The notes beneath the pieces are model-generated. The model ran no database searches and was not told where the DNA came from. It saw nothing but the letters and a program-made list of their open reading frames with translations. From Phycisphaerae bacterium (GTDB taxonomy: Bacteria; Planctomycetota; Phycisphaerae; SM23-33), in assembly GCA_041661865.1 (NCBI GenBank), contig JBAZTO010000019.1:252-64251 (forward strand): a DNA stretch of 64,000 nucleotides, read 5' to 3'. This document shows, in pieces, positions 2,014 to 64,000 of this stretch (its first letter is position 1; each line of letters starts with the position of its first letter). The position numbers and the translations under genes were made by a program.

Positions 2014-2170
2014 TTCGCAAACCTATCACACTTACGCAGGGCGCGCCGGCGGAAACACCGGCTCGCCCTGCTATGTTTTTTCGGCCCAGAGTCCGACGGC
2101 GGGCGGTCCCACTGGCTGCAAGAAGCCCTTGGGATAGTTTCCGGCCAGTGCCTCCTATATAATCCCCACC

Positions 2171-3181: not shown

Positions 3182-3196
3182 GCGGGGTTGTCCGTG

Positions 3197-4351: not shown

Positions 4352-4414
4352 AATTTCAACTTTCCTGTCCAGACACACGCCCGACACTCCGCATCGAGCC
4401 TCTTGCCTGGAACC

Positions 4415-4510
4415 CTTAGAGCCTATCCCAATAGGTGGCACAGCTTTTCCAAGCTGTGCCATGCACAGGCTGGAAAGCCTGTGCTACACACCTACTGAGA
4501 TAGGTTCTTA
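4415..4510. mobile_element. 96-bp MITE-like element, copy A (22-bp imperfect TIRs, two internal hairpins)
   Basis: 95/96 bp identical to the reverse complement of 5353-5448; termini TTAGAGCCTATCCCAATAGGTG / CACCTACTGAGATAGGTTCTTA are inverted (18/22); internal hairpins GGCACAGCTtttccAAGCTGTGCC and GCACAGGCTggaaAGCCTGTGC. Confidence 0.75.
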
Positions 4511-5335
4511 CGCGCCGGCCGCCGGGGCCGGATAATCGCCGATCCGCCGGCGCATCTTCGCCACCTTGCGGGTGACCGCAGCCGCATAGCGACGCCCGTT
4601 GGAGATGCCCACAAGTCGCAGGTAGTCCTGGAAAAACGCGTCCCAGTGCCGCTCGATCCACGCCGGCGGCATGGAGTACTTCAGTTGGGCCAGATCCTTC
4701 ACGCGCCACCGAAACACGCAGCATCGCGGGCGAAACATCCGCGCCACGTCGATCAGGCTCAGCCGCATCGCGCCGTCGGGATCGTCCAGGTAGATGTGGG
4801 AGGCGTAGAGGTCGCGATGGACATAGCCGCTACGGTGCAAGGCGGCCACCAGCTCCGCCAGCCGCCGCGTGAAGTCTTCGAGCACTTCAGGCCGGCTGGC
4901 GTTGCGATCCATGAACTCCGCGAAGCAATGTTCCAACGCCACGCCCGGCACGGCGGAGAGAAGAATGTAGCTTCGCCGCACTCCCAGCAGGTCGCGTTCC
5001 TCCTGGTAGTAGGCGTGCTGGATGGTCGGCAGATTGGCCTGGTTGGCGCTGCGGACGCATTCCATTTCGACGCTGGCGGGGCTCTGGCCAGGCCCGTAAG
5101 TCAGCAGGCGCCTCAGCCGCCAGGCCAGCGGCTCACGCTCGTATCGCTTCATGTACAGCACGAGGGGCCGGCCCTGCCCGTCGGTCAACTCGATGCGAAA
5201 GTATCGCCGGTGCCCCAGGCCCGCGCGCGTCAGATCCCGGGCCTGGGCGTACGAAAAGGCCGACGCCACCGTGTCCAGATTGTTGCGGCGGATCACTTCC
5301 AGCATGTCCGCCGGCATGAACTGCTTCTCGCCCAT
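4508..5335 (-). CDS. Lipopolysaccharide kinase (Kdo/WaaP) family protein kinase-like
   Basis: 275 aa; catalytic-loop motif YVHRDLYASHIYL and overall Kdo/InaA/WaaP-kinase-like profile; ATG at 5335 lies 17 bp from MITE copy B; TAA stop (4510-4508) is formed by the terminal bases of MITE copy A. Confidence 0.7.
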   Translation of the reverse strand: MGEKQFMPADMLEVIRRNNLDTVASAFSYAQARDLTRAGLGHRRYFRIELTDGQGRPLVLYMKRYEREPLAWRLRRLLTYGPGQSPASVEMECVRSANQANLPTIQHAYYQEERDLLGVRRSYILLSAVPGVALEHCFAEFMDRNASRPEVLEDFTRRLAELVAALHRSGYVHRDLYASHIYLDDPDGAMRLSLIDVARMFRPRCCVFRWRVKDLAQLKYSMPPAWIERHWDAFFQDYLRLVGISNGRRYAAAVTRKVAKMRRRIGDYPAPAAGA

Positions 5336-5352
5336 CGGCCGCGCGCTCCATT

Positions 5353-5448
5353 AAGAACCTATCTCAGTAGGTGTGTGGCACAGGCTTTCCAGCCTGTGCA
5401 TGGCACAGCTTGGAAAAGCTGTGCCACCTATTGGGATAGGCTCTAAGT
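5353..5448. mobile_element. 96-bp MITE-like element, copy B (inverted relative to copy A)
   Basis: Reverse complement matches 4415-4510 with a single mismatch; lies between the kinase-like gene start and the tRNA-Ser 3' end. Confidence 0.75.
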
Positions 5449-5486
5449 CACAGCACCGAGTTGCGCATGCACAGGCGCATAAGAAA

Positions 5487-5571
5487 CGGAGAGGGAGGGA
5501 TTCGAACCCACGGTACCCGAAGGTACACCGGTTTTCGAAACCGGCCCATTCAGCCACTCTGGCACCTCTCC
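5487..5571 (-). tRNA. tRNA-Ser (anticodon CGA)
   Basis: Minus-strand cloverleaf GGAGAGG...; anticodon stem CCGGT/ACCGG with loop TTCGAAA (anticodon CGA); long variable arm typical of Ser; T-loop GGTTCGAATCC; 85 nt, no encoded CCA. Confidence 0.85.
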
Positions 5572-5662
5572 GGCTTTGGCAATGCGGCAGAACACTCTAC
5601 CCGCCGAGGCTATCACCGTCAAGGCGACTGCAACCAAAGCGTAGGGCCTTTCAGTTTTCGAC

Positions 5663-5777
5663 GTAGCACGGGCGTCTCGCCCGTGAGTAGCATGGGCATC
5701 TTGCCCATGTCGGTGAGTTTTCGTATATCGCACGGCCGGGACGGCCGTGATACTCATGGCCAAGATGGCCATGCTAC
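5663..5777. repeat. Two tandem twin-hairpin units (four 8-bp-stem, 3-nt-loop hairpins) between the sigma gene 3' end and tRNA-Ser
   Basis: Hairpins 5667-5685 CACGGGCGtctCGCCCGTG, 5691-5709 CATGGGCAtctTGCCCATG, 5731-5749 CACGGCCGggaCGGCCGTG, 5755-5773 CATGGCCAagaTGGCCATG; the two units differ by compensatory G/C swaps on both stem arms. Confidence 0.6.
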
Positions 5778-5944
5778 GAGAACTGATGGCCCTGAACCAA
5801 AGCGGGCCAACCTGACGCACTGCGGATTGTGCAGATGATGAAACAACCTCGCAGCGGCAGGCACGCACTCGTAGCCGGCGGAGGACTGCCGCACGAGGAG
5901 GGACTGGTATTCCATCCGTTTTGAAACTGCGGGTTGGGTGCGTG

Positions 5945-6778
5945 TCAGGCCTCGTTGTCGGCCAGTTGTTTCAACGCGGCCAGGGCCTTCTTTTCGAGCT
6001 GGCGGACACGTTCGCGCGTCAGGCCGACCTTCTGGCCGATTTCCTTGAAGGTCCGCGGCGGGCCCTCGTAGCCGTCCAGCCCAAAGCGCAGCTCCAGGAT
6101 CTTCCGCTCGCGCGGTTCGAGGTGCTTCAGGAGCGACTTGACCATCGGGGCGTTGCATGCGTCCATCATCGCCTGCTCGGGGGCCGAGCCGGTGACATCG
6201 ACCATGATCTCGCCGATGGCGCTACTGTCCTCGCCGCCCACCTGCGTCGGGGCGTTAACGGCCAGCAGGCCCTGCTGGACAATCTCGGCCTTCTTGCGGC
6301 TGATGCGGAGTCTCTTGGCCATCTCCTCGAGGGTCGGCGTGCGGCCGAACTGGCCTTCCAGCTCCGCGGCGGTCCTGCGCCACTTGCTGATGAGCTTGAC
6401 CAGGTAGGCCGGGATGTGGATGGGCTGGCCGGCGTTGATCATCGCCCGCTTGAGCGACTGCTTGATCCACCAGGCCGCGTAGGTGCTGAACCGCACGCCC
6501 GCGTCGGGGTTGAACTCCTCCACCGCCCGCATGAGCCCCAGGTTGCCCTCCGCCACCAGGTCGCTGAGCGTCATGCCGGGATTGTAATACTCCTTGGCGA
6601 TCTTGACCACCAGGCGCAGGTTGGCGGCGATCATCTGCTCGCGGGCGATGGGGTCACTGCCCTGGCGGATCTTGCGCGCCAGATCCCTCTCCTCCTGCGC
6701 CGTCAGCAGGCGAGCCTGCTTGATGCGGTCGAGATACCAGCCCAGCGTCGTCTGCGTCGATAGCGATCGCACGGTCAT
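5945..6778 (-). CDS. RNA polymerase sigma factor, sigma-70 family
   Basis: 277 aa with region 2 (GNLGLMRAVEEFNP, RFSTYAAWWIKQSLKRAM), region 3 and region 4 HTH (TFKEIGQKVGLTRERVRQLEKKAL). Confidence 0.85.
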   Translation of the reverse strand: MTVRSLSTQTTLGWYLDRIKQARLLTAQEERDLARKIRQGSDPIAREQMIAANLRLVVKIAKEYYNPGMTLSDLVAEGNLGLMRAVEEFNPDAGVRFSTYAAWWIKQSLKRAMINAGQPIHIPAYLVKLISKWRRTAAELEGQFGRTPTLEEMAKRLRISRKKAEIVQQGLLAVNAPTQVGGEDSSAIGEIMVDVTGSAPEQAMMDACNAPMVKSLLKHLEPRERKILELRFGLDGYEGPPRTFKEIGQKVGLTRERVRQLEKKALAALKQLADNEA

Positions 6779-6953
6779 CGGATCACCTCCAAGCGAGTCC
6801 TGACGTTCCTCATGGAATGTCGGCTTGGATTGGGTGCGACTTAAGCAAGGCCAGCCCCTCGGCGGCGCGTAAAAAAGGGCATGACATCCCTCGATGCCAC
6901 GCCCTTGTCAGGCTATCGTTTCCGGCCCCGCGAGGAGGCCGGGATGCCTCGAT

Positions 6954-8795
6954 TTACTCTTCCTGCTGCTCGTTGTTGCGAATGGTCTGGATGATGTCGT
7001 CGCCGATCATCCCGCCGCCGCCTTCCAGCCCGCCACGCCGCTTGGCGCGATCGCCGGAGTCGGCCGACTCGCCAGGTTGGCCATCCTCGGCGGCCCACTG
7101 GGCACGCTTGAGGCTCAGGCCGATCTTGCGGTCGTCGGTGTCCACGCGGAGGATCTTGACCTCGATCTCGTCGCCGACCTTGACCACGTCCTGGGGATTC
7201 TCGACCTTGTGGTCGGCCAGTTCCGAGACGTGCAGCAGGCCTTCCAGCTCGTCTTCCAACTCCACGAACACGCCGAAGTTGGTGAGCTTGGTGACCTTGC
7301 CCTTGACGATCTGGCCCGGCTGGTAGTGGGTTGGAATGCTTCGCAGCCACGGATCCTCGCTCAACTGCTTGAGGCCCAGGGCCACGCGCATCTTCTCTTC
7401 GTCCACCGCCAGCACGACGCACTGGAGTTCCTGGCCCTTCTTGAGAACTTCGGAAGGATGCCCGATCTTGCGCGTCCAGGACAGGTCCGAAACGTGCAGC
7501 AGGCCGTCGATGCCTTCCTCGATCTCCACGAACGCGCCGTAGTTGGTCATGTTCCGCACCACGCCCGTGATGACGGTGCCCGGCGGGTACTTTTCCTTCA
7601 CCAGCGTCCAGGGGTTGATCTCGGCCTGCTTCATGCCCAGCGAGATCTCCTGCTTGTCCTTGTCGATCTCCAGCACGACCACCTCGACCTCGTCGCCGGC
7701 GTTGACCATCTCCGAGGGGTGGTTGATGCGCCGCGTCCAGCTCATCTCGCTGATGTGCACCAGGCCTTCGAGGCCCTCTTCCAGCTTGACGAACACGCCG
7801 TAGGCCATGATGTTGACGACCTTGCCGCGGATGCGCGCGCCGACGGGGTACTTCTCGCCGACCTGTTCCCACGGGCTGGCCGTCTGCTGCTTGAGGCCCA
7901 GCGCGATCTTTTCCTTCTCGCGGTCGACGTTGAGCACCTGGACCTCGATCTCCTGGTCCAGCTTGAGCATCTCGGTGGGATGGCCGATGCGCCCCCAGCT
8001 CATGTCGGTGATGTGCAGCAGGCCGTCCAGGCCGCCCAGGTCGATGAACGCGCCGAAGTCGGCGATGTTCTTGACGACGCCCTTGCGGATCTGGCCCTCG
8101 CTGATCTCGGCCAGCAGCTTGCTCTTGGCCTCGGTGCGACGCTCTTCAATGAGCTTGCGACGCGAGACGACGATGTTCCGCCGCTCCTCGTCGATCTTGA
8201 GAATCTTGGCGTCGATGGTCTGGCCGACGTATTCGCCGATGTCGCCGGGCCGACGGATGTCCACCTGGCTGGCCGGCAGGAAGGCCGGCACGCCGATGTC
8301 CATCAGCAAGCCGCCCTTGATCTTGCGGGTGACGGGGCCGCGAACGATATCGCCTTCCTTGTTCTTCTCGATGATGCGCTCCCAGCCGCGGATGCGGTCG
8401 GCCTTGCGCTTGGAGAGAACCACCAGCCCGCTGTCGGATTCCACTTCTTCCAGCAGCACTTCCACCGGCTGGCCCGGCTGCATCTGCTCGGCGGATTCAA
8501 ACTCGCTGATATCGACGGTGCCTTCGCTCTTGAGGCCCACTTCGACGACCACGTCGTTGCCCACGACGTTGACCACCTTGCCCGTCAGGATCGAACCGAC
8601 CTGGGGGCTGGTGCGGACCTGCATCATCATTTCGCCCAGGGCTTCCTGGTTGAATGAGCCGCCCATGGCCTGGTCGAGCTGCTTGGCTACGTCGTCGTCG
8701 CTGACCCCCAATGACTTGATGAGATTATAATCTACCATTTGCTTCCTGAATTCCTGTTCCTGAGTCTCGCCTTCGCGACGTCGCTCCCGGTTCAC
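6954..8795 (-). CDS. rpsA: 30S ribosomal protein S1
   Basis: Six tandem S1 RNA-binding domains (repeated G..V.G.V..I..FGAFV.L..GL.GL.H.S motifs); alternative start at M20 (8738) possible. Confidence 0.9.
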   Translation of the reverse strand: MNRERRREGETQEQEFRKQMVDYNLIKSLGVSDDDVAKQLDQAMGGSFNQEALGEMMMQVRTSPQVGSILTGKVVNVVGNDVVVEVGLKSEGTVDISEFESAEQMQPGQPVEVLLEEVESDSGLVVLSKRKADRIRGWERIIEKNKEGDIVRGPVTRKIKGGLLMDIGVPAFLPASQVDIRRPGDIGEYVGQTIDAKILKIDEERRNIVVSRRKLIEERRTEAKSKLLAEISEGQIRKGVVKNIADFGAFIDLGGLDGLLHITDMSWGRIGHPTEMLKLDQEIEVQVLNVDREKEKIALGLKQQTASPWEQVGEKYPVGARIRGKVVNIMAYGVFVKLEEGLEGLVHISEMSWTRRINHPSEMVNAGDEVEVVVLEIDKDKQEISLGMKQAEINPWTLVKEKYPPGTVITGVVRNMTNYGAFVEIEEGIDGLLHVSDLSWTRKIGHPSEVLKKGQELQCVVLAVDEEKMRVALGLKQLSEDPWLRSIPTHYQPGQIVKGKVTKLTNFGVFVELEDELEGLLHVSELADHKVENPQDVVKVGDEIEVKILRVDTDDRKIGLSLKRAQWAAEDGQPGESADSGDRAKRRGGLEGGGGMIGDDIIQTIRNNEQQEE

Positions 8796-8997
8796 AACGA
8801 AACCGGGCGCCGCGCCCGCCGGTCAAGCCCCGCGGGAGGGGCGGCTGGACCACCCAGCCTCCTGCCCATAGGCAGGCCTGCGCCGCGGAGCAATACCGCC
8901 CCATGGCGCGAGCAGAGTAGTCTAGACGCATTTGGCCATTCCTGCAACACGATTATGCCTGGAAGTTGGGGCCGAGAATGAGCCTTTCGGGCAAGAA

Positions 8998-9024
8998 TGT
9001 AGGGCATGCAACTCGTTGCACGCC
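8998..9024. terminator. REP-like palindromic hairpin (GGGCATGCAAC-tcg-GTTGCACGCC) downstream of the DMT gene and upstream of rpsA
   Basis: 9-10-bp stem with 3-nt loop in an intergenic region; a near-identical copy lies at 29200-29226 between convergent genes. Confidence 0.45.
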
Positions 9025-9088
9025 CTTCTAACTGGCGCCCAGAGGAGAATGGGCGAAGCAATCATCCATTTCGGGCCGGCCGTTCAAG

Positions 9089-9430
9089 TCAGGGCTTGGC
9101 TTCCTTGAACATGAAGATGAAAAAGACCGCCGCCACGATCAGGGCGAAACCCACGAGGTAGTTCCACCGCAGCGGCTCGCGCAGGTAGACCACCGAGAAG
9201 ATCGAGAATACCACCAGCGTGATGACCTCCTGGATCGTCTTGAGCTGGGCCGCCGACATCTGTGCGTGCCCGATCCGGTTGGCCGGCACCTGGAAACAAT
9301 ACTCCAGGAACGCGATGAGCCAACTGACCACGACCACCTTCCACAAGGCGGTACTCTTGTACTTCAGGTGTCCGTACCACGCGATGGTCATGAAAACATT
9401 GGAGATAATCAGCAGTATGACGGTCCACAT
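9089..9430 (-). CDS. Small DMT-superfamily-like membrane protein (DUF486-like)
   Basis: About 113 aa, four predicted TM helices, start probably MWTVILL; family assignment is from recall only. Confidence 0.45.
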   Translation of the reverse strand: MWTVILLIISNVFMTIAWYGHLKYKSTALWKVVVVSWLIAFLEYCFQVPANRIGHAQMSAAQLKTIQEVITLVVFSIFSVVYLREPLRWNYLVGFALIVAAVFFIFMFKEAKP

Positions 9431-9521
9431 AGCAGCTCTTTGCACTCCTCAATGAAGTCGAAAATCGCGGCTATTCTAGCACAAAGGCCATGCCCGTTGG
9501 CGCACAAGAAAGCCCGGCGCC

Positions 9522-10658
9522 ATGAATTCACTTGTCCAAATGCCACAGCCCGGTAGAATCGCGAACATCGCTGGCGAGAGTCGTCGGCGAGCAGTCATCT
9601 GGGAAATGTTGGATTGTAGCGCAGACTGGATATCGGGAGGCGACGGAATGTTTGACCCTATTCAATGGATTCGTGACCATTTTGAATTGCACCAGGCCAA
9701 CTCGGCCGAGTTCATTTATGGTACGCAAGAGACGCTGTCTGACTTTCACCAACCGGGGATCTACAAACCGTGGGACCCCACCTGCAACATTCACGTCCAT
9801 CTGCGAGGTCGCATACTTGATTACGCGGCCATGATGGCCAATCGCCGCGTGTTGGATTTCGGTCCCGGTGAGGGGTATCCCTCGCTCGTGCTGGCACCAT
9901 TTGTGGCCGAGGTCGTGGGCGTCGATGGCAGCGTCAAACGTGTGGAGGAGTGTTCCGGCAACGCCGCGCGAATAGGCATTGCCAACGCCAGCTTCGTCCA
10001 CGTTCCACCGGGCCAACTCCTGCCTTTCCCCGACACCAGCTTCGATGGGGCCGTGGCATCCTGGTCGCTGGAGCAGTCACCGGACTTGGCACAGACGCTC
10101 CGCGAGATTCGTCGCGTGCTGCGGCCGGGCGGAATCTTTCGCTTCGAGCCCGAGACCCTCGGCCGTTATGCGGCCAAGCACCAGCAGCAGGTATGGCTGC
10201 CCGATGCGCTCGGCGGATTCCACGGTCTGACGATCTTCGACCGCGACATTGCCGGCGAGCGCGTGGTCCACTACGGCCTGTTGGTGGACCGTGGCATTAT
10301 CGATCGTTTGACGAAGAGACGCGGCATGCCGTCGCTGGACGTGCTGACGTTGGAGGTGCTGGAAGGATTGCGTCCGCACGTACTCAAGGCCGGAACGTGG
10401 ACTACACACCATCCTTCTTTCGCGTCCTGGCCGCGATGGCTGAGCGAAGCAGGCTTTGCCACATCGCGACTCACCTACAGCGGCGGCTGGATGGCCGACC
10501 GCATGATCCGCTGCCTGCCCAAGGACCAGCGTCCGGCGACGCTACAGGCTCTGGACGCACTGCTGGTGCCGATGGCTCGTCTGGCTGCCGAGATGGATGC
10601 TCCGCTGCCGCCGCCCGATGGCGAGGACGGCCTATTCATCACGGCAACCAAGACATGA
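9522..10658 (+). CDS. Class I SAM-dependent methyltransferase
   Basis: Motif I VLDFGPGEGYPS and motif post-I/II/III region (VVGVDGS..., LREIRRVLRPGGIF); start probably internal (about 9606-9648). Confidence 0.65.
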   Translation: MNSLVQMPQPGRIANIAGESRRRAVIWEMLDCSADWISGGDGMFDPIQWIRDHFELHQANSAEFIYGTQETLSDFHQPGIYKPWDPTCNIHVHLRGRILDYAAMMANRRVLDFGPGEGYPSLVLAPFVAEVVGVDGSVKRVEECSGNAARIGIANASFVHVPPGQLLPFPDTSFDGAVASWSLEQSPDLAQTLREIRRVLRPGGIFRFEPETLGRYAAKHQQQVWLPDALGGFHGLTIFDRDIAGERVVHYGLLVDRGIIDRLTKRRGMPSLDVLTLEVLEGLRPHVLKAGTWTTHHPSFASWPRWLSEAGFATSRLTYSGGWMADRMIRCLPKDQRPATLQALDALLVPMARLAAEMDAPLPPPDGEDGLFITATKT

Positions 10659-10742
10659 CATGGACTGACTCTGGAGAAAGTCCGCAGGTCGCGGCTGGTA
10701 TTGCATCAGTCTTGAAACTTCCCGGCACGCCCTACATTGCCA

Positions 10743-11087
10743 CTACATCTGCTTGAGGATGGCGGTGTAGAACAGCGCGATCAGGCCGGCGGCCAGGACC
10801 GTGAAGGACAATTGGACGGCCCAGGTGGCCAGGGCATGGCCTTTGCTTTCCGCATGGCCGTTGTGGCGGCGGAGGAAGTGTCTTGCGGTCATGGCCAGAC
10901 CAAAGACGGCCAGGCCGCCGATGATCATGCTCACGAAGACGACGGTGGCGACGTGCTTGACCTTGGGGTCCGACGGCAGCAAGGCAGACACCAGCAGGGC
11001 CACGACGGCGGCGGCGATCTGGTAGGCGATCACGGGGATCCTGCCGCGCGGCTTGCGGTTCTTGGTGGCCCGGGGTTTGTAGGTCAT
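10743..11087 (-). CDS. Hypothetical small membrane protein
   Basis: Three predicted TM helices; start likely MTYKPRATK at 11087. Confidence 0.35.
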   Translation of the reverse strand: MTYKPRATKNRKPRGRIPVIAYQIAAAVVALLVSALLPSDPKVKHVATVVFVSMIIGGLAVFGLAMTARHFLRRHNGHAESKGHALATWAVQLSFTVLAAGLIALFYTAILKQM

Positions 11088-11100
11088 GGCTGTGCCATCC

Positions 11101-12495
11101 TCAGAGGGTGAATCGATCGCCCGGCGCCGGAATGTAAACATTCCTGCAGCCGGCCCGCTTTAGAAGTTCGCTCATCGCCGCCGGCTGGGGCCCTTCGCCA
11201 TGCACCACGAAGGCTGCACGCAGGTCTTTGGCGATCGGGGCCAGGCAGCGGGCGAAGTCCTCCGCGTCGGCGTGGGCGGAAAAGCCGTTGAGTATCTCCA
11301 CGCGGCAGAGCAGCTTGTACATTCGGCCGAAGATCTTGAGTTCCTCCCGCCGTTCGACGATCCGCCGCCCCAGCGTGTGCTGGGCCATGAAACCCACGAT
11401 CACGACCGTGTTGCGTTCCTTCTCGATATTGTTCTTGAGGTGGTGGAGGATGCGCCCGGCCTCGCACATGCCGGCCGAGGCGATAATCACGCACGGCTCG
11501 TCCATTGTGTTGAGGGCCTTGGATTCATCGACCGACGTGATGTACCTGACCTTGTTGCCGCCGAAGATGTCCCCGCTATGGAACCAGAAATCGCGGGCCT
11601 CGCGGTCGTAGCACTCGGGGTGTTTCTTGAAGACCTCGGTGGCGTTGGTGGAGAGGGGGCTGTCGACATAGATCGGCAGCGGTTTGAGCAGTCCCTCGGC
11701 CATCGCCTGGCAGAGGTAGTAGACCACCATCTGCGTCCGCCCGACGGCGAAGGAGGGGATGATGACCTTGCCCCCGACGGCCACCGTCTCGTTGATGATG
11801 CGGACCAGTTCGTGCTTCATGTCGATCGCGTCGGCGTGGCGGCGGTCGGCGTAGGTACACTCGGTGATGAGGTAGTCCACCTCCGGCAGCGGGCAGGTGG
11901 GGTCTCTCAGGATGGGCATGTTCTGGCGGCCGAAGTCGCCGGTGTAAAGCAGATGCACCGGGCGGGACTGGTGGATGGCCACCAGCAGGCTGGCCGAGCC
12001 GAGGATGTGCCCGGCCTCCAGCCAGGTGGCCGTGGCCCCCGGGGCGATCTCGATGGGCTGGCCATACGGTACGCAGCGGAAGAGGGCGACGGCGTCCTTG
12101 GCGTCCTGGAGGGTGTAGAGCGGCTTGATGAACTCCGACGGGCCGGCGGCGCGTTTCTCGTTCCAGAACCGGGCGTCTTCCTCCTGGATGTGAGCCGAGT
12201 CGGCCAGCATCACCTCGGTCAGGTCGCAGGTGGCCGGGGTGGCGTAGATGGGCCCGCGAAAGCCCCTTCGCGTCAGGCCCGGAAGGTTGCCGCTGTGGTC
12301 AATGTGGGCGTGGCTCAGGAGCACGGCCTGGAGCTGCTCGGGCGGCACGGGGAAGGTTTCGTTTCGCTGGCGGGCATCCTCGCGCCGGCCCTGGAACATT
12401 CCGCAGTCCAACGCGAAGGGCCCCTGGTCAAGATGCAGGATGTGCATGGAGCCGGTCACTGTTTGTGCGGCCCCGAAAAACTCCAACTCCGTCAT
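11101..12495 (-). CDS. MBL-fold metallo-hydrolase with beta-CASP and RNA-specificity domain (RNase J/CPSF-like ribonuclease)
   Basis: HxHxDH motif (SHAHIDHSGNLP), beta-CASP and C-terminal RMMBL region; ATG at 12495 preceded by AGGAGT RBS. Confidence 0.8.
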   Translation of the reverse strand: MTELEFFGAAQTVTGSMHILHLDQGPFALDCGMFQGRREDARQRNETFPVPPEQLQAVLLSHAHIDHSGNLPGLTRRGFRGPIYATPATCDLTEVMLADSAHIQEEDARFWNEKRAAGPSEFIKPLYTLQDAKDAVALFRCVPYGQPIEIAPGATATWLEAGHILGSASLLVAIHQSRPVHLLYTGDFGRQNMPILRDPTCPLPEVDYLITECTYADRRHADAIDMKHELVRIINETVAVGGKVIIPSFAVGRTQMVVYYLCQAMAEGLLKPLPIYVDSPLSTNATEVFKKHPECYDREARDFWFHSGDIFGGNKVRYITSVDESKALNTMDEPCVIIASAGMCEAGRILHHLKNNIEKERNTVVIVGFMAQHTLGRRIVERREELKIFGRMYKLLCRVEILNGFSAHADAEDFARCLAPIAKDLRAAFVVHGEGPQPAAMSELLKRAGCRNVYIPAPGDRFTL

Positions 12496-12559
12496 GGGTA
12501 CTCCTGAACTGATTTCACTGGTCGCGGGGCACGCCGCGCTGCAACGCCCAGGCATGCCG

Positions 12560-14209
12560 TCAATTCCCGGGCCCATCCTCTAGTACATCGGTCAGCAGGT
12601 ATTGATGCTTGTACTGTTCTCCGCGGCCGAGACGCTGGCGAATTCTCTCCCTCTCGGCCTGCTCCATCGCGCCGGGGGGCAGGGCCCTCGGCTGGACGGG
12701 GCCCAGGCGCAGGGTCTTTCGCTTGGAGGCGTACTCGATGTTGAGCGCCATCAATTCGGCATCCATCGCCGCGGCCAACGCGGGCATGTCCAGGCCCGTC
12801 TCCTGCTCGAGGCGAAGTTCGTAGTAAGGCTCCCGGGCGAAGCGACCCTGCACGACAAATCGCTCCACTCGCGCCGAGACGACGGCGCAGGCCCGCCGCA
12901 TTGCCTCCACGACCTGGTGCTCGGTGATCTTCTCGCCGGTGATGTTGGCGGTGTGCAGCCCGCGCGACAGAAACTCAAACACCGGGCTTTGCCCCAGCCG
13001 GCCCGTGACGCGGATGCGGTCGTCGAGGCTGTATCGCCACAACCCGGCCCAGTTGGTGACGACCAGGAAATACTCCTGGCCGACTTCCAGCTCGTCGGCG
13101 CGAAAAACCGGCGGGTTGGGCCTGCCGTAGTCGCCGGCCGGGATGAACTCCAGGAAGTTACCCAGGATGTCCGCCACGCCCGCCGAGGTGTCGTCGGCCA
13201 TCGGGATGGAAAATCGCCCCTCGCTGGCCAGCAGGCCGATGTCGCGCACGGGCGCGTCGTTGAACAGCTCGCGGAGGCGTGGGAGGTAGAGCTTGAGCGT
13301 GCCGCCGGTCCAGTTGGCCAGGAAGGCGACGTTCCAGAAATGGCGCGGCAGCAGGTGTCCGTCGCGGGCGATGCCTGCCTCCAGCCGCCTGGCCAGGGCC
13401 TTGTTGGGCCTGAAACGCAATTGCCCCGCGACCGAAGGCGGCAAGCCGCCGGGCGGGTTGAGCGTCCCGTCGGCCAGGTCGCGAATCAGCCCATCGGCGT
13501 GCTGCTGGCCGGTCTCGATGAGCTTGATGGTGCTGGAAGGATTGGCGGTGGTGATGAACGAGACATCATGCTCGATGGCGCACCGCAACGTCGCGTAGCA
13601 CTTGGCCAGCGGGTCGGGGATCTCCAGCACGCAGGCGGGCACGACGTACATTCGCCGGACGATGGGCTTCTGCGTGCGGGCGAGCAGGCCGCTGATGGCC
13701 CCGCAGCACTTGCCGGTGGGGCTGTCGCTCTCGTGCATCGGCGAGGAAATCTGCAGAATCGGCCGCAGCCAGGCGGCCTTGTGGTCCAGCAGGGCCGCCA
13801 GTCCCCAGATGTTCCAGCCGCGACGCATCTCCGAGAGGAACCGGGGCGTGACGGGGATGTGCTTGGGCTTGCCCGTCGTGCCGGAGGTTCGGGAGAACAT
13901 CAGCACCGGCTGATCCGGCGGCAGCAGGGCGGTGGTTTGCCCGGCCAGTACCGCGTCCATGTAGGGGCGCAGATCGTCATAGGTGCGAATGGGCACCGCC
14001 GCCTTGAAGTCCTCGTAGGACCTGATCGACGCGAAGTTGTGATCGGCGGCGAACGTGGTGGCGGCGTGGCGATGCAGAAGTTCGCTCAGCAACTGGTCCT
14101 GCACCTGGCGCGTCCGCTGATGGGCGGAGAGGAAACCCTTCAACTGTCTCTGCGCATGCAGGCCGCCTAGGTATGCTATCGGCCTGAGGATCGTTCGTTT
14201 GAGGTTCAT
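12560..14209 (-). CDS. GH3 auxin-responsive-promoter family protein (acyl-acid amido synthetase-like adenylating enzyme)
   Basis: 549 aa; adenylation motif SRTSGTTGKPK and GH3-family-length architecture. Confidence 0.7.
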   Translation of the reverse strand: MNLKRTILRPIAYLGGLHAQRQLKGFLSAHQRTRQVQDQLLSELLHRHAATTFAADHNFASIRSYEDFKAAVPIRTYDDLRPYMDAVLAGQTTALLPPDQPVLMFSRTSGTTGKPKHIPVTPRFLSEMRRGWNIWGLAALLDHKAAWLRPILQISSPMHESDSPTGKCCGAISGLLARTQKPIVRRMYVVPACVLEIPDPLAKCYATLRCAIEHDVSFITTANPSSTIKLIETGQQHADGLIRDLADGTLNPPGGLPPSVAGQLRFRPNKALARRLEAGIARDGHLLPRHFWNVAFLANWTGGTLKLYLPRLRELFNDAPVRDIGLLASEGRFSIPMADDTSAGVADILGNFLEFIPAGDYGRPNPPVFRADELEVGQEYFLVVTNWAGLWRYSLDDRIRVTGRLGQSPVFEFLSRGLHTANITGEKITEHQVVEAMRRACAVVSARVERFVVQGRFAREPYYELRLEQETGLDMPALAAAMDAELMALNIEYASKRKTLRLGPVQPRALPPGAMEQAERERIRQRLGRGEQYKHQYLLTDVLEDGPGN

Positions 14210-14430
14210 CTGCTAACCGGATAACGTCGTGAAAACGATAGTATAACAAAGTTGGTCGTGGGGGCTGCTAACAATCAACTGGGTGCCATGACCGCGGTGT
14301 TTGCGGCCAGGTGAAACCATGGTTAACATTCTGCCTCGCCTCGCTGGCAAATCCCGTTATTAAACCAGTTGCAGTATAACAAACCGTAGGGGTTGACGAT
14401 GGGGAATCAGTGCAATGGCAGGTGGAGGCC

Positions 14431-14859
14431 TTACGTGCCAATGCTATCCTTGTGGTCTGGTTCCACCGTGGAAGGATCGGACGGTTGTTTTCGGAACAAA
14501 GCCGGCAAGTCATATGCAATGGGCATGAGCAAGAGCCCCAGGGCGAATGACGGCAGCAATACATGCAATTCGTCTCCGTAGACCCAAACGCCCACCACCG
14601 GGCAGAGGCCGTAGATGACTACCGCAATGATGCATCCCAGCCAGTTGAATGGGGCCCCCTTGGCGATGAACAGGTCCACGGTGATCATGGACAGCAGGCA
14701 AGCCAGTGGTGTGACGCATCCGGGAAGAAAAGAAACGAGCGCATGACCATCCTGGGTCAAGCAGACAGGAATAGCCGACACGGCCACAGCGCCACCCACG
14801 CCAGCCAGGAAATGAATGATCAGAGCGGTAGAAAAACGTGTCTTTCGCTTGTCAGCCAT
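14431..14859 (-). CDS. Hypothetical polytopic membrane protein
   Basis: 142 aa from ATG 14859 (MADKRKTRF...), four hydrophobic segments; the longer ORF to 15162 overlaps ribD and is not credible. Confidence 0.4.
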   Translation of the reverse strand: MADKRKTRFSTALIIHFLAGVGGAVAVSAIPVCLTQDGHALVSFLPGCVTPLACLLSMITVDLFIAKGAPFNWLGCIIAVVIYGLCPVVGVWVYGDELHVLLPSFALGLLLMPIAYDLPALFRKQPSDPSTVEPDHKDSIGT

Positions 14860-14878
14860 CAGCTTATCTCCTCTTGGA

Positions 14879-16036
14879 CTATTGGCGCCCCAGCACGTAC
14901 CGCTGCCAGCGGTCGGGGCCGAAAGTTTGCTCCTCCGCCGGCTCAATGGCCAACTCGCGGCGAAGTTGGGCGATGTCCAGGCGGGGCAGGGCCGGGTCGT
15001 CGAAGGCGCCGGCCGAGGGACAGACGAACACCTGAAACTCGTCGGCAAGGTTCTGGCGGATGAAGGAGTTAAGCACGGCCGCCCCGCCTTCCACCAGCAG
15101 GTACGTATGCTCGCGCTGTCCCAACGCATCCAGCAGGGCCGACAGAGAGACTCTCGGCTCATCCGAGCCCGCGACCTCCGTGGGCAATTCCAGTATCTCT
15201 GCGCCAGCCTGGCGAAGGGATGCCGCGGCGCTATCAGGTGCCACGGCTGCGGTTTTGGCAGCCGTGCTCGCCTTATCCTTGCCCGCGACCGTCGCGATCA
15301 GCACTGGCCATTGGCGGGCCGTGGCCAGCAGTTGGCAGTGGGGCGGGGTCCGCAGGCGGGCGTCCAGGACGATCCTCAGCGGCTGGCCGCCGCTGCCGCC
15401 GCGATTGTTGAGGAGCGGGTCGTCGGCCAGGACCGTGCCCGCGCCGACGCAAATCCCCTGGCACAGGCCTCGCAGGTGATGCACGTACTGGCGCGACTGC
15501 TCTCCGGAGATCCATCGCCCCGTGCCCCTGGGCAAGGCCAGCAGGCCCTCGACGGTCTGGGCCCACTTGCAGATCACCCACGGGCGGCGCCGGGTCCGCA
15601 GCTTGATGTAGGGGGCCAGCAGGGTCCGGGCCGCCTGGCTGCACGGGCCGACAGTCACCTCGATGCCCGCCTGGCGCAGCGTGGCCAGGCCCTTGCCGGC
15701 CACCTTGGCGTCGGGGTCTTCCATGGCCGCGACGACGCGAGCAACCTTCGCGGCAATCAGGGCATCGGTGCAGGGGGGCGTCTTGCCGTGGTGGCAGCAG
15801 GGTTCGAGCGTCACGTAGAGGGTCGCCCCGGCCGGGTCGATGCCGGCCCCTCGTGCAGCCGCCAAGGCCTCGACCTCGGCATGGGGGCCGCCGAAACGCC
15901 GGTGCCAGCCGCGGGCCAGCTCGCGTCCGTCGCGGGCCAGCACCGCGCCGACCATCGGATTGGGCTCGACGCTGCCCCGGCCGTTGCGGGCCAGGTCCAA
16001 CGCCAGAGACATTAAACGTTCATCCGCTTCAAGCAT
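14879..16036 (-). CDS. ribD: Bifunctional diaminohydroxyphosphoribosylaminopyrimidine deaminase / 5-amino-6-(5-phosphoribosylamino)uracil reductase
   Basis: N-terminal CMP/dCMP deaminase zinc motif (HAEVEAL... TLEPCCHHGKTPPC) and C-terminal RibD reductase domain. Confidence 0.9.
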   Translation of the reverse strand: MLEADERLMSLALDLARNGRGSVEPNPMVGAVLARDGRELARGWHRRFGGPHAEVEALAAARGAGIDPAGATLYVTLEPCCHHGKTPPCTDALIAAKVARVVAAMEDPDAKVAGKGLATLRQAGIEVTVGPCSQAARTLLAPYIKLRTRRRPWVICKWAQTVEGLLALPRGTGRWISGEQSRQYVHHLRGLCQGICVGAGTVLADDPLLNNRGGSGGQPLRIVLDARLRTPPHCQLLATARQWPVLIATVAGKDKASTAAKTAAVAPDSAAASLRQAGAEILELPTEVAGSDEPRVSLSALLDALGQREHTYLLVEGGAAVLNSFIRQNLADEFQVFVCPSAGAFDDPALPRLDIAQLRRELAIEPAEEQTFGPDRWQRYVLGRQ

Positions 16037-16117
16037 GGCCCTATTATAGGGACTCGGGGCCTCTTGGGAACGACAGTTGGCGCCACGTTTGGTACCACAG
16101 CCATCTCGGCTATGGAG

Positions 16118-39440: not shown

Positions 39441-40379
39441 TTATTGCTTGAATGGACCGATCAGGAAGGCGTCGTCAGGCTCCTGCCATGAAGCTCCCCA
39501 TGTGGTACATTTGAGGTCGCCGGTCGTAACGGCGGTACGGCAATTAGCGGGGCCCGTGTTGCCGTAGGTGCTGTAGATATTGTCGTCGCCCTTGCCGCCG
39601 CCCGCCAGCGTGCCGACATCCGCGCGCTTGTTCTTGGAGGTGGAGCCGTCAGCCAACAGGGTATTGTTGAGTTCGCCGTTGTGGTTGGGGCTGTTCCACA
39701 GTTTGATCACGACGTCAGAAGCCTCCGTGCCGGAAGCGGGGAAAGCGTTGGCTTCGAGAGCGGCCTTCTGGCTACCGTCCCAGTTGGGGCTCTTGTCAGC
39801 CATCCAGACCTGCCGAGGACGTTGCGAGGTCAACACGGTGCCTCTTGTAGCCATCTGGTGAGAGTAGCTCACGCCCTTGACGGCCAATAAGGATATGTTC
39901 TTAGTATCATCTCCCCAGGTGCCGGTCTTGGCAGTGCGAAAATGGAAGTCGAAGGCATAGGCGCCGGTGTTGGGATCCTTGGGCTCGGTATCCTTGGTGT
40001 CATCCGTGCTGGGGCAGACAAACAGGCCTGGGTCACTCTGGGTGCTGCGAAGGATCAGGAACATCAATGCCGTGATGGAATGGTCAAGGGCGTTGTTGCT
40101 TGCGTCCCTGCGGGCGCCGTAATTCTTGCCCGTGGGGAAAAAGAAGTTGCTGTCGCCATTAGCAGAGGTATTGGCGCTGGCCAACATCGGATACTTGTCG
40201 TCATTGTCGGCCATGTAAACAAGGCCGGCCTTGCCGATGCCCGACAGGTTCGCCATGCACTTGAGCTGGTTGGCCAGTTCCTTGGCTCTGCCAAGGCTGG
40301 GCAGCAGGATGGAAACCAGCAGGGCGATGATGGCAATAACCACCAACAACTCAACCAGCGTAAAACCCTTTTTCTTCAT
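39441..40379 (-). CDS. DUF1559-type protein with prepilin-type N-terminal cleavage/methylation domain
   Basis: [30 protein letters not shown]-terminus then a DUF1559-like body; ATG 40379 preceded by AAGGAGAG RBS. Confidence 0.85.
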
Positions 40380-40979
40380 GATACTCTCCTTCACCTTTTC
40401 CACCGCCTCGTTGTTCTGCCAGGCAGGCCGTTTCGGACTAACGGGAAAACTGGATAATTAGTCCTTCATGCGGCTCCGAAAGCAGGCTTCCTAGCTCGCC
40501 CAATTCGGCGGTAGGCCTGGTTCGAACTCTCCAGACGAACGCCGTCTGGATTCTTTTCAAGTAAACCAGCGGTTGGCGTTTCCGCTGGGCAGCAACCCAG
40601 TTTGCCTTTCGCGATAAACCGCCGCTTCCAGCGGAAGAGGCCGGGCCTAAACGCTAAAGGCCATCACGCGGGAGAGAGTTCAGGAGAGAGAGCCGAAGAT
40701 TCAAGATCGTATTAGGGCAGACTCATCCAGCTATCGTCTCTCGAACACTTCTCCGTTGCTTAAATTGTACGCGGCGGGCCTAGGCCCTGTCAACGTGTCT
40801 ATCGGCAAAAACCATAGTTTTCAGTAGGATTTGGCTCGCGGCCGGGGCAGGGTTTTCGGCCCACGACCGCCGGGGGAGCCCATTGACAAAGTCCAGCCGG
40901 GGGGCTTACTGTTTACCGTCAGTTGGCAATTCATGGCTTTGCACCTGCCCGGCCGATAGACTAGGTAACTCAAAGCGGT

Positions 40980-46160: not shown

Positions 46161-46817
46161 ATGGCCGACACAATACATTACAGCAACCGCTTCAAGGACA
46201 GCCGTCGTGCCCTTGGCTACGCCACCCGTTTCGATCAGGGTTCGCGCCGGCGGATCAACGATCGCGAACAGCGCGCCGTCCGCGGAATATTCGAGGCGAT
46301 GCCTCATTGCCGCAGCGTGTTGGATGTGCCATCGGGCGCCGGGCGCTTTCTGACCGTTCTGACACAGGGTGGACGCGAGGTGACCGAAATGGACATCTCC
46401 CGGGAAATCCTGGCTCTCGCCCGACAGCAAGCGGACAGCCTCGGCCTCCAAGCCAGGTTTCTCGAAGGCGACGCCCTGCGTATCCCCCTGCCGGCTGACA
46501 GTGTGGATGCCGTGTTCTGCAACCGTCTGCTGCATCACATCGGTTCCCCGGTGGACCGGGTGGCCTTCCTCCGGGAATTCCATCGGGTCACGCGCCGATA
46601 CCTGGTCGTATCATTTTTCGATTTCCGGTCTTTCGGCACCACACGCACCTTCTTCAAGAAGCTCGCTGGCCGCCGTGCAAGTTTCGCCAAACATCCGACG
46701 CAGGCTGAGTTCGCGGACGAGGCCGCCCAGGGCGGGTTTCGTCTGTTACAAGTGGTGCCCACGGGTGCCTTTTGGGTTGCCCAGAAGTACTTCGTGCTGG
46801 AAAAAACGGGGATTTGA
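46161..46817 (+). CDS. Class I SAM-dependent methyltransferase
   Basis: Motif I VLDVPSGAGRF, downstream MDIS..., LHHIGSP. Confidence 0.7.
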   Translation: MADTIHYSNRFKDSRRALGYATRFDQGSRRRINDREQRAVRGIFEAMPHCRSVLDVPSGAGRFLTVLTQGGREVTEMDISREILALARQQADSLGLQARFLEGDALRIPLPADSVDAVFCNRLLHHIGSPVDRVAFLREFHRVTRRYLVVSFFDFRSFGTTRTFFKKLAGRRASFAKHPTQAEFADEAAQGGFRLLQVVPTGAFWVAQKYFVLEKTGI

Positions 46818-46930: not shown

Positions 46931-47201
46931 AAACCTTCAGTCGGGTTACAACATCATTGATGCTACGTAGTTATAAGGCGGATTACAAGCATTCTTGAGG
47001 TTTTCAAGTGGATGGCAGGTCACTGAGCACTGCAAAACAAGTCACCACCATGTGACGACTGACCAACTCAGTGACCAACTCGGAACTACCGGCAAAACAA
47101 TGGGAGGAATAGGTCCGAACAAGGACGTTGCCGCCAAACCAACGCGATGGTTGACCGCCTTCATCCCATTCGACTGTCCTTGCCCGCCAATCATCCAGGC
47201 G

Positions 47202-50200
47202 TCAGACAATATGTATGAATTCTCCGGGCTCGCTGGAAACTTGCCGCGGCGGGGCAGGATAGGCCCATGAGTTCAGCTTGTCAACCGTGTCTGTGTGCTT
47301 GACCGACTTGACCTTGCCGGCCGGAGCGAACAGCCCGCCCAGGCCATCCCAATTCAGCAGGTTCAGCGTGCCTATCCTGGCGGAGATGTGGCTGTCCACG
47401 AAGAATCGCGGTATCGGCTGATTTCTGGGGATCTTCCATCCCGTCACGGTCAGTGTCTTGATAGTACCGGTCGGCGCGTTGGCCGTGTCACCTTGTTGCA
47501 CATGGCGATCGGCCTGGAGCAGGTTGAAGCTTACGCCCGCGCCGTAGTCGCTGCCATTGCTGGCACCCATTTTCAGGCTGGTAATGTCTCCAGCTGAGCG
47601 GATCACGCTGTGGTCAACCGTTCCGGCAAAGGTGAGCGAGCCGACGAAACCGGCTTGCACGTCCCATGTCGTGCCGTTGAGCAGATCGCCCGCGACCTTG
47701 ACGCTGCCCAAGGCAGCCTTCTTGGCCGGCAAGGCCGCTCCAGTCAGCGTCACGTCGGCCCCGAAATGTCCTTGGGAGCCGGTCTTGGTGTTCACGCTTG
47801 TGGTCAGCGAGCCGATCCAGCCTGCCGTGATAGTGCCTGACTGCCAGTCGGAGACCGTGATCGAGTTGATCCCGCCCGAGGCCGTAACACTGGCGGTGCC
47901 GACCCGGCCGGCCTTCAGCGAATTGATCGATACGCCGCTGCGGGCGTCCTGGCCCGTAGCCGTCAGTGTGGACTGATCCAGATAGCCCAAGACGTTGAGG
48001 TTCTTAAGCCAAGAGCCAACATTGAGATCCACACCAATCATTTGGCCGCAGGTAATGCCAATCCCCTTGGTGGCGCCGGCGCCAGGCATGACCAGATCGG
48101 CGCCATCTCGCACGTCCTCCACCTGCAAGGTACCGATGTACCCGGCGCCGGTCATAAGAACGCCGCCGCCGACCAGATCAATTGTGCTTGCGTCCACTTG
48201 TCCAAGTGGATCATCGCTCGTAATCCGCCCGACTGTCGCGCCGGGAACAGTCCCGCCCTTAGTCTTGAAGGTCAGTTTCGTTTTGTCGTCTGATTGGGTC
48301 AGGGCCACCTCTTCCAGTTCCAGGCCCGTCCCAACGACGGTGATGCCCTTCTTGTTGACGGTGTAAGTCGCCTCGCCCAGGAAAGTGAAGATCGCCGAGC
48401 CGCCCTTGAGCGTGACCGTCACATCCGTGCCGTCAGCGTCCTTGTAGTACAAGGCCTTGTCCGTGAGCGCATACGGCACCATCGTCATGGACCTGACCGT
48501 GACCTGCCCGTCCTGCAACGTCAGGACCAGATGGCCTTCGTTCAGCGAACTGGTATCGGCGAGATCCAGTAATGCCTGTCCGGGCAGGGCGCCAGCCGAG
48601 ACCTGGAAGTTCAGTTCGACCAGGCTGCCGGACCCGCCGGCCAGGATGTTCGTGGAATAGACCCACAACCTGACCTCTCCGGCCGCGTCGTCCACGTTGG
48701 TCGTGAGGGTCCACCCAGGTGTCAGGGTGCCAAGGCTCACGTCCGCGTTCGTCAGGTCCAGCAAGGAGGTATCGTAACGCAGGCAGATGTCCGCCGCTTG
48801 CAGCCCGGTGGCGTCGCCGAGAAGCACCGGGACGCTGACCCGTCCGCCGGGCACGGCCGTCAGGTTCGGCACGCTCATCAACGGATCGGGCCCGCCTTCC
48901 ACGATCGCCGGCAGCACGCCTGGAAGGTTGGGTATCTCCGGCTGTGACAGGCCAACGCCCTTGCGGGCGAGGTACGAGGCGTCCAGGCTGCTGAGACCCC
49001 CGTTGCCGGTGGTGTCAGCCAGCAGGACTGGGTCTTTCATGCGGTAGCTGGCGAAGCCTCCGTCCAAGCCCACGCCCACGCGGGCCAGGTACGCCGCATC
49101 CAAGGCGCTGTAGGCGTGGTTGCCCGTGGCATCGCCAAGGTAGGCCACCACTTGCACCGCGCTGTCGGTGGCCGAGGAAATCGCGCCCTCGTTGATGGAC
49201 AGGTTCTCCAGCCGGATCGGGCCGGCCGAGGAGTAGGGGGCGCCGTTGGGAATTGCTGCCGACACCCGCACCAGGTCGCGCGCGTCGGCTGCCAGGGGCG
49301 TCTGGCCGAAGACCCACACAGCCACACGGCCAGGGGTCCCAAGGTCGCGTTCCACCGACCAGCCCGCCGGCATGCCCGACGCCAGCGTCACGCCGGTGAC
49401 GGTCAGCATGGTCGGGTCGTATTCTAAGACGAAATCGATACCCAGGATGCCGTCCCCGTTGTCAATGGACACAGGGATTCCCGCGCCGGTCGCCGGGACG
49501 TTGACGGCCTGCCCCGGTCCGCGGGTGAAGTCCGGCAGCGAGAGCATCCGGGCCGTGCCCGCCTCAACCGTAACCGTGTTGACGTAATCGCCACCCTCGA
49601 CGTTGTTCGCGTCGCCGTCCAACAGATGGCCTTCGCCGTCCTTGAAGGCGTCGGCTCCGCTCCGCAGAGTCACGGTGTACGTGTCGGCCGCCAGTGGACC
49701 GCCGGTCTTGATGAAGGTGACCGTCCTGGCCTGCTCGTCATACAGCAGCGAGCCGGCCACCGGGCCGACGGTAGCGCCAACCACCGTCAGGTCCGCCGGG
49801 CCGTATGTGCCCGCCTGCACGTCGTAGAGGTTCAGCGTGCTGACGTCCAGTGACCGTCGGAAGCGGACGACGAAGCCGCTCGGCGTGGTCTCCAATCGAT
49901 CCACGCGGAGCTGCGAGAAGTCCAAAGTGGTCGCCGCCTCGATGGCGCCGGGATCGTCCTCGACGTACCCGACGTTGTCGCGGGCCACGCTGCGGAAGGC
50001 GTAACTGTGCCCGCCGACGCCGATGAACTGGGCCGAGGTATCGGCCGTGTCCTGCTGCCAGACCTGCCACTCCCCGCCGTTGTCGGAGACGTAAACCGTG
50101 TAGCTGCCGACGCCCGAACCGTTGGCGTCGTCCTGTCCGGCCCAGGTAACCGTGAAGGGCTCATCCGGCAGTTGCACCGCCAGGGCCTGCACGGCGCTGG

Positions 50201-64000: not shown

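Follow-up and report, generated by a model that had tools for sequence, protein, structure and literature searches.

A giant planctomycete protein with a mid-chain Rhs core, a hypervariable segment and a long conserved extension

By the accepted view of bacterial Rhs and YD toxins, everything after the DPxGL motif of the core is cargo, small enough to be held in the cocoon, and it ends the protein. The locus described here raises the question of what such a core is doing in the middle of a chain. The window analysed is a stretch of 64,000 nucleotides from a Phycisphaerae bacterium (assembly GCA_041661865.1, contig JBAZTO010000019.1, positions 252 to 64,251 of the forward strand). Its minus strand carries a giant open reading frame (ORF) with a complete Rhs shell and core in mid-protein, followed in frame by 1,333 residues (aa 4266-5598). 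The same layout (Rhs core, hypervariable segment, DUF7619 with Fn3, adhesin repeats and a C-terminal export or anchor module) was found in 89 polypeptides. The architecture to which the protein belongs is widespread and, in the literature searched, apparently undescribed. Nucleotide positions are those of the window, and residues (aa) are numbered from the first codon of the open frame.

A mid-chain Rhs cassette in an unbroken frame

The features on which the argument depends were as follows.

47202-63998, minus strand: giant ORF, at least 5,598 aa; stop codon at 47202-47204, 5' end open at the window edge
51444-53681, minus strand: Rhs/YD cocoon, aa 3440-4185 (RHS_repeat, YD_repeat_2x, AlphaFold2 model, Foldseek)
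53478-53660, minus strand: DUF6531 at the start of the cocoon, aa 3447-3507 (Pfam, E 2e-06)
51204-51443, minus strand: Rhs-associated core, aa 4186-4265 (NCBIfam TIGR03696 Rhs_assc_core, 58.2 bits against a cut-off of 32.5)
50772-51203, minus strand: hypervariable post-core segment, aa 4266-4409, 144 aa, predicted to be helical and amphipathic; the presumed cargo
50205-50771, minus strand: DUF7619 domain, aa 4410-4598, beginning DPNDK (PF24595, 48.5-48.9 bits against a cut-off of 27, E 8.6e-13)
49914-50204, minus strand: Fn3-like domain, aa 4599-4695, with a conserved W.G.DD..GSG...Y.VYVSDNGG motif; always paired with DUF7619 in a module

Translation of the window from 63998 to 47202 gave 5,598 sense codons and no stops. 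The initial annotation had set the length at 5,578 aa or more. That figure was a count from a GTG at 63938, which is merely the earliest candidate start in the frame; since the frame is already open upstream of it, the protein has at least 5,598 residues. The opening residues fall within a domain that has already begun, which places the true N-terminus beyond the window; the ORF probably also continues past the end of the contig.

The shell and its textbook core, both noted in the initial annotation, were borne out by profile searches. RHS_repeat matched with E 1.5e-33 and 6.8e-65 over 10 stretches (Pfam), and YD_repeat_2x with E 1.2e-46 (NCBIfam). In an AlphaFold2 (AF2) model of aa 3440-4600 that drew on 51 homologues, the predicted local distance difference test score (pLDDT) was mostly above 90 for the shell, and confidence was high again for DUF7619. 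Foldseek placed cocoons of type VI secretion system (T6SS) Rhs proteins at the top for the predicted shell (8qja, 7q97, 8qjc, Tse15 and Tse5, E 1e-54 to 1e-48), followed by the bacterial teneurin-like protein (TLP) 9ifo (E 6e-46), teneurins (~1e-40) and TcB-TcC (~1e-31). The modelled shell thus ranks nearer to T6SS-type Rhs cocoons than to teneurins by Foldseek E-value.

The core follows the pattern MRAR...EDPLGI...VDPLGL, with DPLGI at aa 4237-4241 and DPLGL at aa 4261-4265. The catalytic Arg/Asp/Asp set is present as R4224, D4237 (in DPLGI) and D4261 (in DPLGL). In an alignment of 51 homologues D4237 was invariant, and R4224 and D4261 were kept in at least 90%. Self-cleavage is expected because these three residues are present and conserved across the family, and from the motif the autoproteolytic cut is expected between L4265 and W4266. 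The canonical rule of a terminal toxin of ~100-300 aa right after the core does not hold for this protein. The in-frame continuation, put at about 1,330 aa in the initial annotation and counted here as 1,333, goes far beyond the capacity of the cocoon, and approximately the first 144 aa alone are variable.

The layout was then sought in other genomes and proteins. A DUF7619-Fn3 profile was scanned against GTDB species representatives, which gave at least 557 loci; the best 80 were analysed. A hidden Markov model (HMM) made from six cores was run on the stop-to-stop ORFs of these loci. In 28 of the best 80, the ORF with DUF7619 also contained an Rhs core 92-202 aa further upstream, and 550-1,551 aa came after that core; Rhs cores with more than 500 aa behind them, for which a database check had been proposed, are thus on record. 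TIGR03696 was confirmed in 6 of 6 re-tested loci, and the core ended exactly as predicted each time. Carriers belonged to Pirellulales, Planctomycetaceae, Gemmataceae, Isosphaeraceae, Phycisphaerae, Kuenenia, Verrucomicrobiota, Armatimonadota and cyanobacteria, the last including Microcystis aeruginosa LEGE 91341, Aulosira and Sphaerospermopsis.

Protein searches gave a similar picture. With aa 4266-4700 as query, 190 proteins were found; nearly all aligned from DPNDK onwards and several had an Rhs core a short way upstream. When the shell (aa 3440-4420) was the query, PF24595 and the RHS/TEN_YD-shell occurred together in 52 of the 120 best homologues. The homologues listed reached about 1.75 times the query length (762, 1,714 and 874 aa for queries of 435, 981 and 499 aa); as these were shorter proteins, full-length giant relatives were seen via genome loci only. 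Window, database proteins and genome loci together gave 89 chains with core and DUF7619 within one polypeptide. The combination of domains, which had been called unusual, is so in comparison with described Rhs proteins, but it is not unique.

The post-core region of nine relatives was inspected. DUF7619 was present in all nine and was followed by He_PIG, cadherin or PKD repeats. Four of the nine ended in RTX repeats (including the Microcystis and Aulosira proteins) and two in a terminal Dockerin_1; the others had DUF4214 or DUF4114. In known systems, modules such as type I secretion system (T1SS) signals and dockerins work only at or near the C-terminus.

These data bear on the possibility that an Rhs gene and a separate adhesin gene were fused by an assembly or sequencing error that deleted a stop or a frameshift. 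The contig comes from a metagenome-assembled genome (MAG), and the closest metagenomic relatives, L001 (ERZ25039489 contig_162769) and L002 (ERZ21869592 contig_303), are full of frameshifts, with many short called genes. The frameshifts are spread over the entire giant gene and are not limited to the junction. Scattered frameshifts of this kind are typical of uncorrected long-read assemblies, and because of them L001 and L002 sit in protein databases as fragments (e.g. P0001 and P0003). The frame runs unbroken across the junction in the 89 chains, among them those of 28 independent genome loci spread over several phyla. An artefact is therefore effectively refuted; we regard it as scarcely credible.

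A close homologue of more than 5,369 aa, L003, was found in another MAG (CAZQXG010000007.1, ORF nt 2-16108). The label of that MAG, 'uncultured Alcaligenaceae', looks doubtful, the protein being otherwise seen in planctomycetes. It aligned to aa 1110-3387 (43% identity) and aa 4403-5178 (62%) of the giant protein. Where the giant protein has aa 3388-4402, L003 carries CarboxypepD_reg-like repeats, a helical domain rich in Gly and Ala, and a poly-Pro linker. Since L003 keeps the flanks and swaps the block between them, the giant scaffold is conserved and the Rhs cassette with its payload is an insert that can be exchanged.

The hypervariable segment

The gap between core and DUF7619 was 84-223 aa in the 89 chains (median 142). 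The 89 gap segments fell into 75 BLAST clusters, with flanks on both sides 40-80% identical. A transmembrane (TM)-like stretch (19-residue window, Kyte-Doolittle at least 1.6) was present in 22 of the 89. The three closest relatives differ at this place: the window's protein has amphipathic helices, L002 a glycine-zipper-like hydrophobic sequence and L001 an unrelated beta-rich domain, with flanks 50-80% identical among these three. The window's own segment had no Pfam match at E<=1. An exhaustive HMMER search of 1.84 billion representatives gave one real homologue, P0122, with 29% identity over all 147 residues. A second HMMER match was spurious and repeat-derived.

In P0122 (3,391 aa) the segment sits at the identical place, after the Rhs core and before DUF7619, and 1,171 further residues follow. 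By eye, P0122 has parallel beta-helix repeats and a LamG-like region on its N-terminal side. Downstream of its Rhs part, payload and DUF7619, a TIM-barrel region resembling those of glycoside hydrolases and a Cys-rich, Kazal-like region were likewise seen by eye. The glycosidase-like region suggests that a post-core extension can hold enzymes besides adhesin domains.

The length of the window's segment matches the known size of Rhs and TLP cargos. Cargos of bacterial TLPs, which form their C-terminal domains (CTDs), are ~15 kDa, a limit ascribed by the authors to a cavity of ~44,000 cubic angstroms (PMC13018210). The TM-like stretches in the family and the glycine-zipper-like sequence of L002 recall the CTD of BiTLP, which is membrane-active; by this analogy, the segment may be a membrane-active peptide.

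The reading that we favour, with about as much belief as doubt, takes the protein for a giant adhesin, secreted or on the cell surface, that has an Rhs cassette inside it, a hypervariable cargo and a stalk or anchor outside the cocoon, the C-terminus being reserved for export or anchoring. The adhesive N-terminal part, of more than 3,400 aa, would be made of repeat blocks, CARDB, LVIVD and PPC domains. The cassette would follow in mid-protein as DUF6531, YD cocoon and aspartyl-protease core, and the payload would be the ~144-aa segment right after DPLGL, of a size to fit the cocoon. Some 1,190 aa would lie outside (DUF7619, Fn3, Ig-like domain, cohesin, dockerin-like duplication, cohesin and C-terminal domain) and serve as stalk and anchor. 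The cassette is proposed to be internal because RTX/T1SS signals, dockerins and the C-terminal domain need the C-terminus; the RTX and Dockerin_1 ends of relatives and the terminal place of the tail domain in its homologues fit this. The core would cut after L4265 to give two polypeptides. The cut would leave the payload at the start of the C-terminal fragment, and its capture in the cocoon would keep the halves together. The payload, presented on the cell surface, is probably a peptide that acts on membranes or is toxic in another way. We infer the cleavage, the encapsulation, the exit of the chain from the cocoon and the biological role.

Several observations weigh against this reading. AF2 confidence for the segment was low (pLDDT 21-66 across models, and 21-29 in the model of aa 3440-4600). 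Known toxin folds were not seen among the family's post-core segments, 0 of 78 matching Pfam at E<=0.01. A novel toxin may of course be absent from Pfam. Low-complexity sequence rich in Pro and Gly makes up many of the segments, and their diversity could reflect relaxed constraint on a linker and not diversifying selection on a toxin. An immunity-like gene was not found directly downstream of the giant gene, and the ORFs downstream of the relatives' genes matched no known immunity family, ORF calling at high GC being noisy. The DUF7619-Fn3 module also occurs after helical, hydrophobic or acidic-linker segments in proteins without an Rhs shell. Solved bacterial Rhs and TLP cocoons are without an opening for the chain, and this reading requires an exit path.

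Some of the same observations suit a teneurin-like structural use, in which the cocoon would be a rigid scaffold or hub without a toxin, the segment a fast-evolving linker lying outside it or threading out, and cleavage optional. The absence of Pfam toxin matches, the Pro/Gly-rich segments and the missing immunity gene are as this would have it, as are the long extracellular extension past the shell, which teneurins also have, and the exchange of the cassette for beta-sandwich repeats in L003 with the flanks kept. It is harder to reconcile with the protease residues, which are conserved in this family and lost in metazoan teneurins, and with segment lengths that stay within the bounds of real cargos and do not drift freely. 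TM-like hydrophobic stretches in a quarter of the segments and a shell nearer by Foldseek E-value to toxin-carrying T6SS cocoons also speak against it. We consider this structural use rather unlikely, though it is the strongest of the rivals.

A bolder version of the adhesin reading takes the cocoon as a releasable latch in a giant fibre on the cell surface. Once the protein had cut itself, the adhesive N-terminal half would be tied to the cell-anchored C-terminal stalk by the short trapped peptide alone; binding of a target, and the pull that results, would uncap the cocoon and bare a membrane-active or toxic peptide at the tip of the pilin-like stalk. We think this improbable. If true, it would mean delivery of Rhs cargo without T6SS or Tc machinery in Planctomycetota, Cyanobacteria (including Microcystis), Verrucomicrobiota and others, and it implies a cocoon with a chain exit unseen in solved bacterial structures.

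The extension, the N-terminal region and the surroundings

Beyond the DUF7619-Fn3 module the extension comprised the following.

49554-49901, minus strand: Ig-like domain, aa 4700-4815, weakly supported (Big_5, E 0.11)
49134-49526, minus strand: cohesin module 1, ~aa 4825-4955 (Pfam, 25.9 bits against a cut-off of 24.1, stretch aa 4841-4923)
48939-49136, minus strand: duplicated 25-aa segment, aa 4955-5020, LGDATGNHAYSALDAAYLARVGVGL and LADTTGNGGLSSLDASYLARKGVGL, dockerin-like by eye only
48501-48875, minus strand: cohesin module 2, aa 5042-5166 (stretch spanning profile positions 4-137 of 139)
~aa 5167-5317, minus strand: beta-rich stretch, by eye; no Pfam match
47205-48047, minus strand: C-terminal domain, ~aa 5318-5598, ending ...FIHIV and the stop; 5 homologues

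The initial annotation had described an Ig/Fn3-like extension. An Fn3 domain was found, but the first ~144 aa are the hypervariable segment, and it is the conserved DUF7619-Fn3 module that follows. DUF7619 was modelled with pLDDT above 95 (AF2, aa 4266-4700), and its best PDB matches by Foldseek were Gram-positive pilins, AgI/II and Cna. The domain is listed as a predicted CnaA-like intramolecular isopeptide domain in a 2025 survey (PMC12617251), and K4414 and N4573 lie near the isopeptide profile positions given there. The position of the isopeptide Lys is occupied by I, L, M or V in ~95 of 244 DUF7619 modules.

PF00963 Cohesin scored 60 bits (E 3.8e-16, two stretches) over the whole piece. 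Of the cohesin-dockerin-cohesin module originally proposed, the two cohesins were recovered by Pfam and the dockerin was not: aa 4955-5020 gave no Dockerin_1 match at E<=1, and hhalign against four real dockerins gave E=0.11.

The two cohesins invite a polyprotein reading, by which the Rhs core would be mainly a self-processing site that yields an N-terminal adhesin and an independent cohesin-bearing scaffold, either separate or re-associating via cohesin-type contacts; this is the released fragment of the initial annotation. The conserved catalytic residues fit it, and what lies beyond the cut would make a whole adhesin-like protein, C-terminal domain included. For a single cut, however, a cocoon of over 800 aa is an extravagance, and the dockerin partner is unsupported. 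The relatives carry RTX or dockerin ends and not cohesins, so docking by cohesins is not the general logic of the family. We judge the polyprotein quite unlikely.

What had been taken for a Gly/Thr/Ser-rich tail proved to be a conserved C-terminal domain. It gave no Pfam match and no PDB match (phmmer). Its homologues, P0243-P0247, are otherwise different proteins in which it stands at the extreme C-terminus in 5 of 5, all ending F[IV]H[LI][IV] before the stop. One of them starts with a planctomycete-style LEPRLLLS N-terminus. The tail is possibly a planctomycete C-terminal domain for sorting or anchoring that has not been described before.

The N-terminal adhesive region (aa 1 to ~3,440) was delimited as follows.

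57999-63998, minus strand: adhesive region, aa 1-2000; three repeat blocks, CARDB after each and further CARDB later
54999-57986, minus strand: LVIVD/beta-propeller region, ~aa 2005-3000, limits approximate (Pfam, LVIVD 1.2e-35, Beta_propel 6.2e-08)
54642-54854, minus strand: PPC (pre-peptidase C-terminal) domain, aa 3049-3119 (Pfam, E 3.6e-07, 31.4 bits against a cut-off of 25.9)

Pfam matches thus agreed with the domain list given earlier for this region (CARDB, LVIVD and PPC). CARDB matched with E 4e-69 (6 stretches) and 3.7e-29. The repeat unit is ~55 aa long (EFRVNTYT..Q..P.VA.D..G.FVV.WQS..QDGS..GVYGQRY) and occurs ~17-25 times in the three blocks between aa ~75 and 1520. The sole match to these repeats was the NCBIfam 'PDIAV motif-containing lipoprotein', at 56 bits under a cut-off of 90. 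The repeat is unnamed in Pfam and probably forms beta-propeller blades. In the visible giant protein Pfam found no HemolysinCabind (RTX) repeats, and the visible part had no PAAR, VgrG or other delivery-system domain.

Downstream of the giant gene the window held two features.

47040-47060, minus strand: terminator-like hairpin, ~140 nt past the stop codon of the giant gene
46161-46817, plus strand: S-adenosylmethionine (SAM) methyltransferase gene, convergent with the giant gene

On inspection of ORFs, no credible small ORF lay between the giant gene and the methyltransferase gene; the hairpin alone was there. The initial annotation had likewise reported a convergent neighbour and no immunity-like ORF. 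In two relatives, L021 (nt 11813-12466) and L069 (nt 12309-13007), from Kuenenia and Phycisphaeraceae, an ORF of ~220-230 aa lay just downstream of the Rhs-DUF7619 gene. The encoded proteins showed a borderline PEP-CTERM motif (E 5e-4 and 1e-3). Elsewhere in the window, a protein of 320 aa encoded at 39441-40403 on the minus strand has an N-terminal methylation motif of prepilin type (N_methyl, E 6e-08). Prepilin-type N_methyl proteins are abundant in Planctomycetota, in keeping with the assignment to Phycisphaerae.

Comparison with known systems

The order DUF6531 then YD cocoon is shared with T6SS Rhs effectors (RhsA, Tse5 and Tse15) and WapA. Also shared with Rhs toxins are the TIGR03696 core, the DPxG-x19-DPxGL spacing, the catalytic Arg/Asp/Asp and a cargo-sized hypervariable segment right after the core, and T6SS Rhs cocoons are the top structural matches to the predicted shell. 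The giant protein differs from Rhs toxins in that the cargo is not C-terminal, the conserved domains of stalk, adhesin and anchor running on beyond it for ~1,190 aa. The cassette lies within a surface protein longer than 5,598 aa that has, in its visible part, no delivery domain, and neither a known toxin fold nor a downstream immunity gene.

Bacterial TLPs were described by Raoelijaona et al. (2026) from six phyla, Planctomycetota and Cyanobacteria not among them (PMC13018210). The giant protein resembles TLPs and teneurins in having a surface-displayed YD shell after large adhesion regions. With TLPs it shares the DPxG protease motif, which metazoan teneurins are without (PMC13018210), and a hydrophobic cargo of ~15 kDa. 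The CTD of a TLP is the true C-terminus, fully enclosed in a shell in which the authors saw no opening (PMC13018210), and an immunity gene follows; in these respects the giant protein differs. The initial annotation had called the layout closer to teneurins than to bacterial Rhs. Domains do lie beyond the shell, as in metazoan teneurins, but the protease motif is kept and the Foldseek ranking points towards T6SS Rhs cocoons. The external domains of metazoan teneurins are ABD and Tox-GHH, and their uncleaved C-terminus leaves the shell. The giant protein departs from this: Pfam found no ABD or Tox-GHH in it. Of the superfold of teneurins and TLPs (FN-plug, NHL beta-propeller and YD shell), the shell was matched, though less well than by T6SS Rhs cocoons, and no NHL domain matched at E<=0.01. 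With the protease motif present, NHL not detected and the CTD not terminal, it does not look like a teneurin or a TLP by their defining features.

Tc toxins (TcB-TcC) likewise combine a YD cocoon, an aspartyl-protease core and a hypervariable region (HVR), which in Tc is encapsulated and cleaved. The Tc cocoon has a defined exit, the beta-propeller gate of TcB, and its HVR ends the protein, whereas the variable segment of the giant protein does not. TcB- or SpvB-type domains and a TcA partner are absent here, and the shell similarity is much lower (E ~1e-31).

Giant RTX and fibrillar adhesins (CLIPPER/DUF11, DUF7619; PMC12617251) are comparable as very large repetitive surface proteins. They also share the CnaA-like DUF7619 stalk with Fn3, Ig, cadherin or PKD repeats, and relatives of the giant protein end in RTX or dockerin. 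In the literature searched, no fibrillar adhesin with an internal Rhs cocoon was described, nor was a conserved adhesin extension behind an Rhs core.

The giant protein and at least 88 relatives consistently break the rule that everything after DPxGL ends the protein as cargo. In a 2026 structural survey, the size of the C-terminal part is proposed to be limited by the cavity (PMC13018210). If the chain leaves the cocoon, an opening of the shell exists, and the protein could be a bacterial counterpart of the teneurin layout that still has its protease. Such a protease-keeping, teneurin-like layout, if true, would bear on the origin of teneurins. If the cargo is toxic, environmentally important groups, bloom-forming cyanobacteria and planctomycetes among them, would have a way of delivering Rhs cargo that depends on neither T6SS nor Tc systems.

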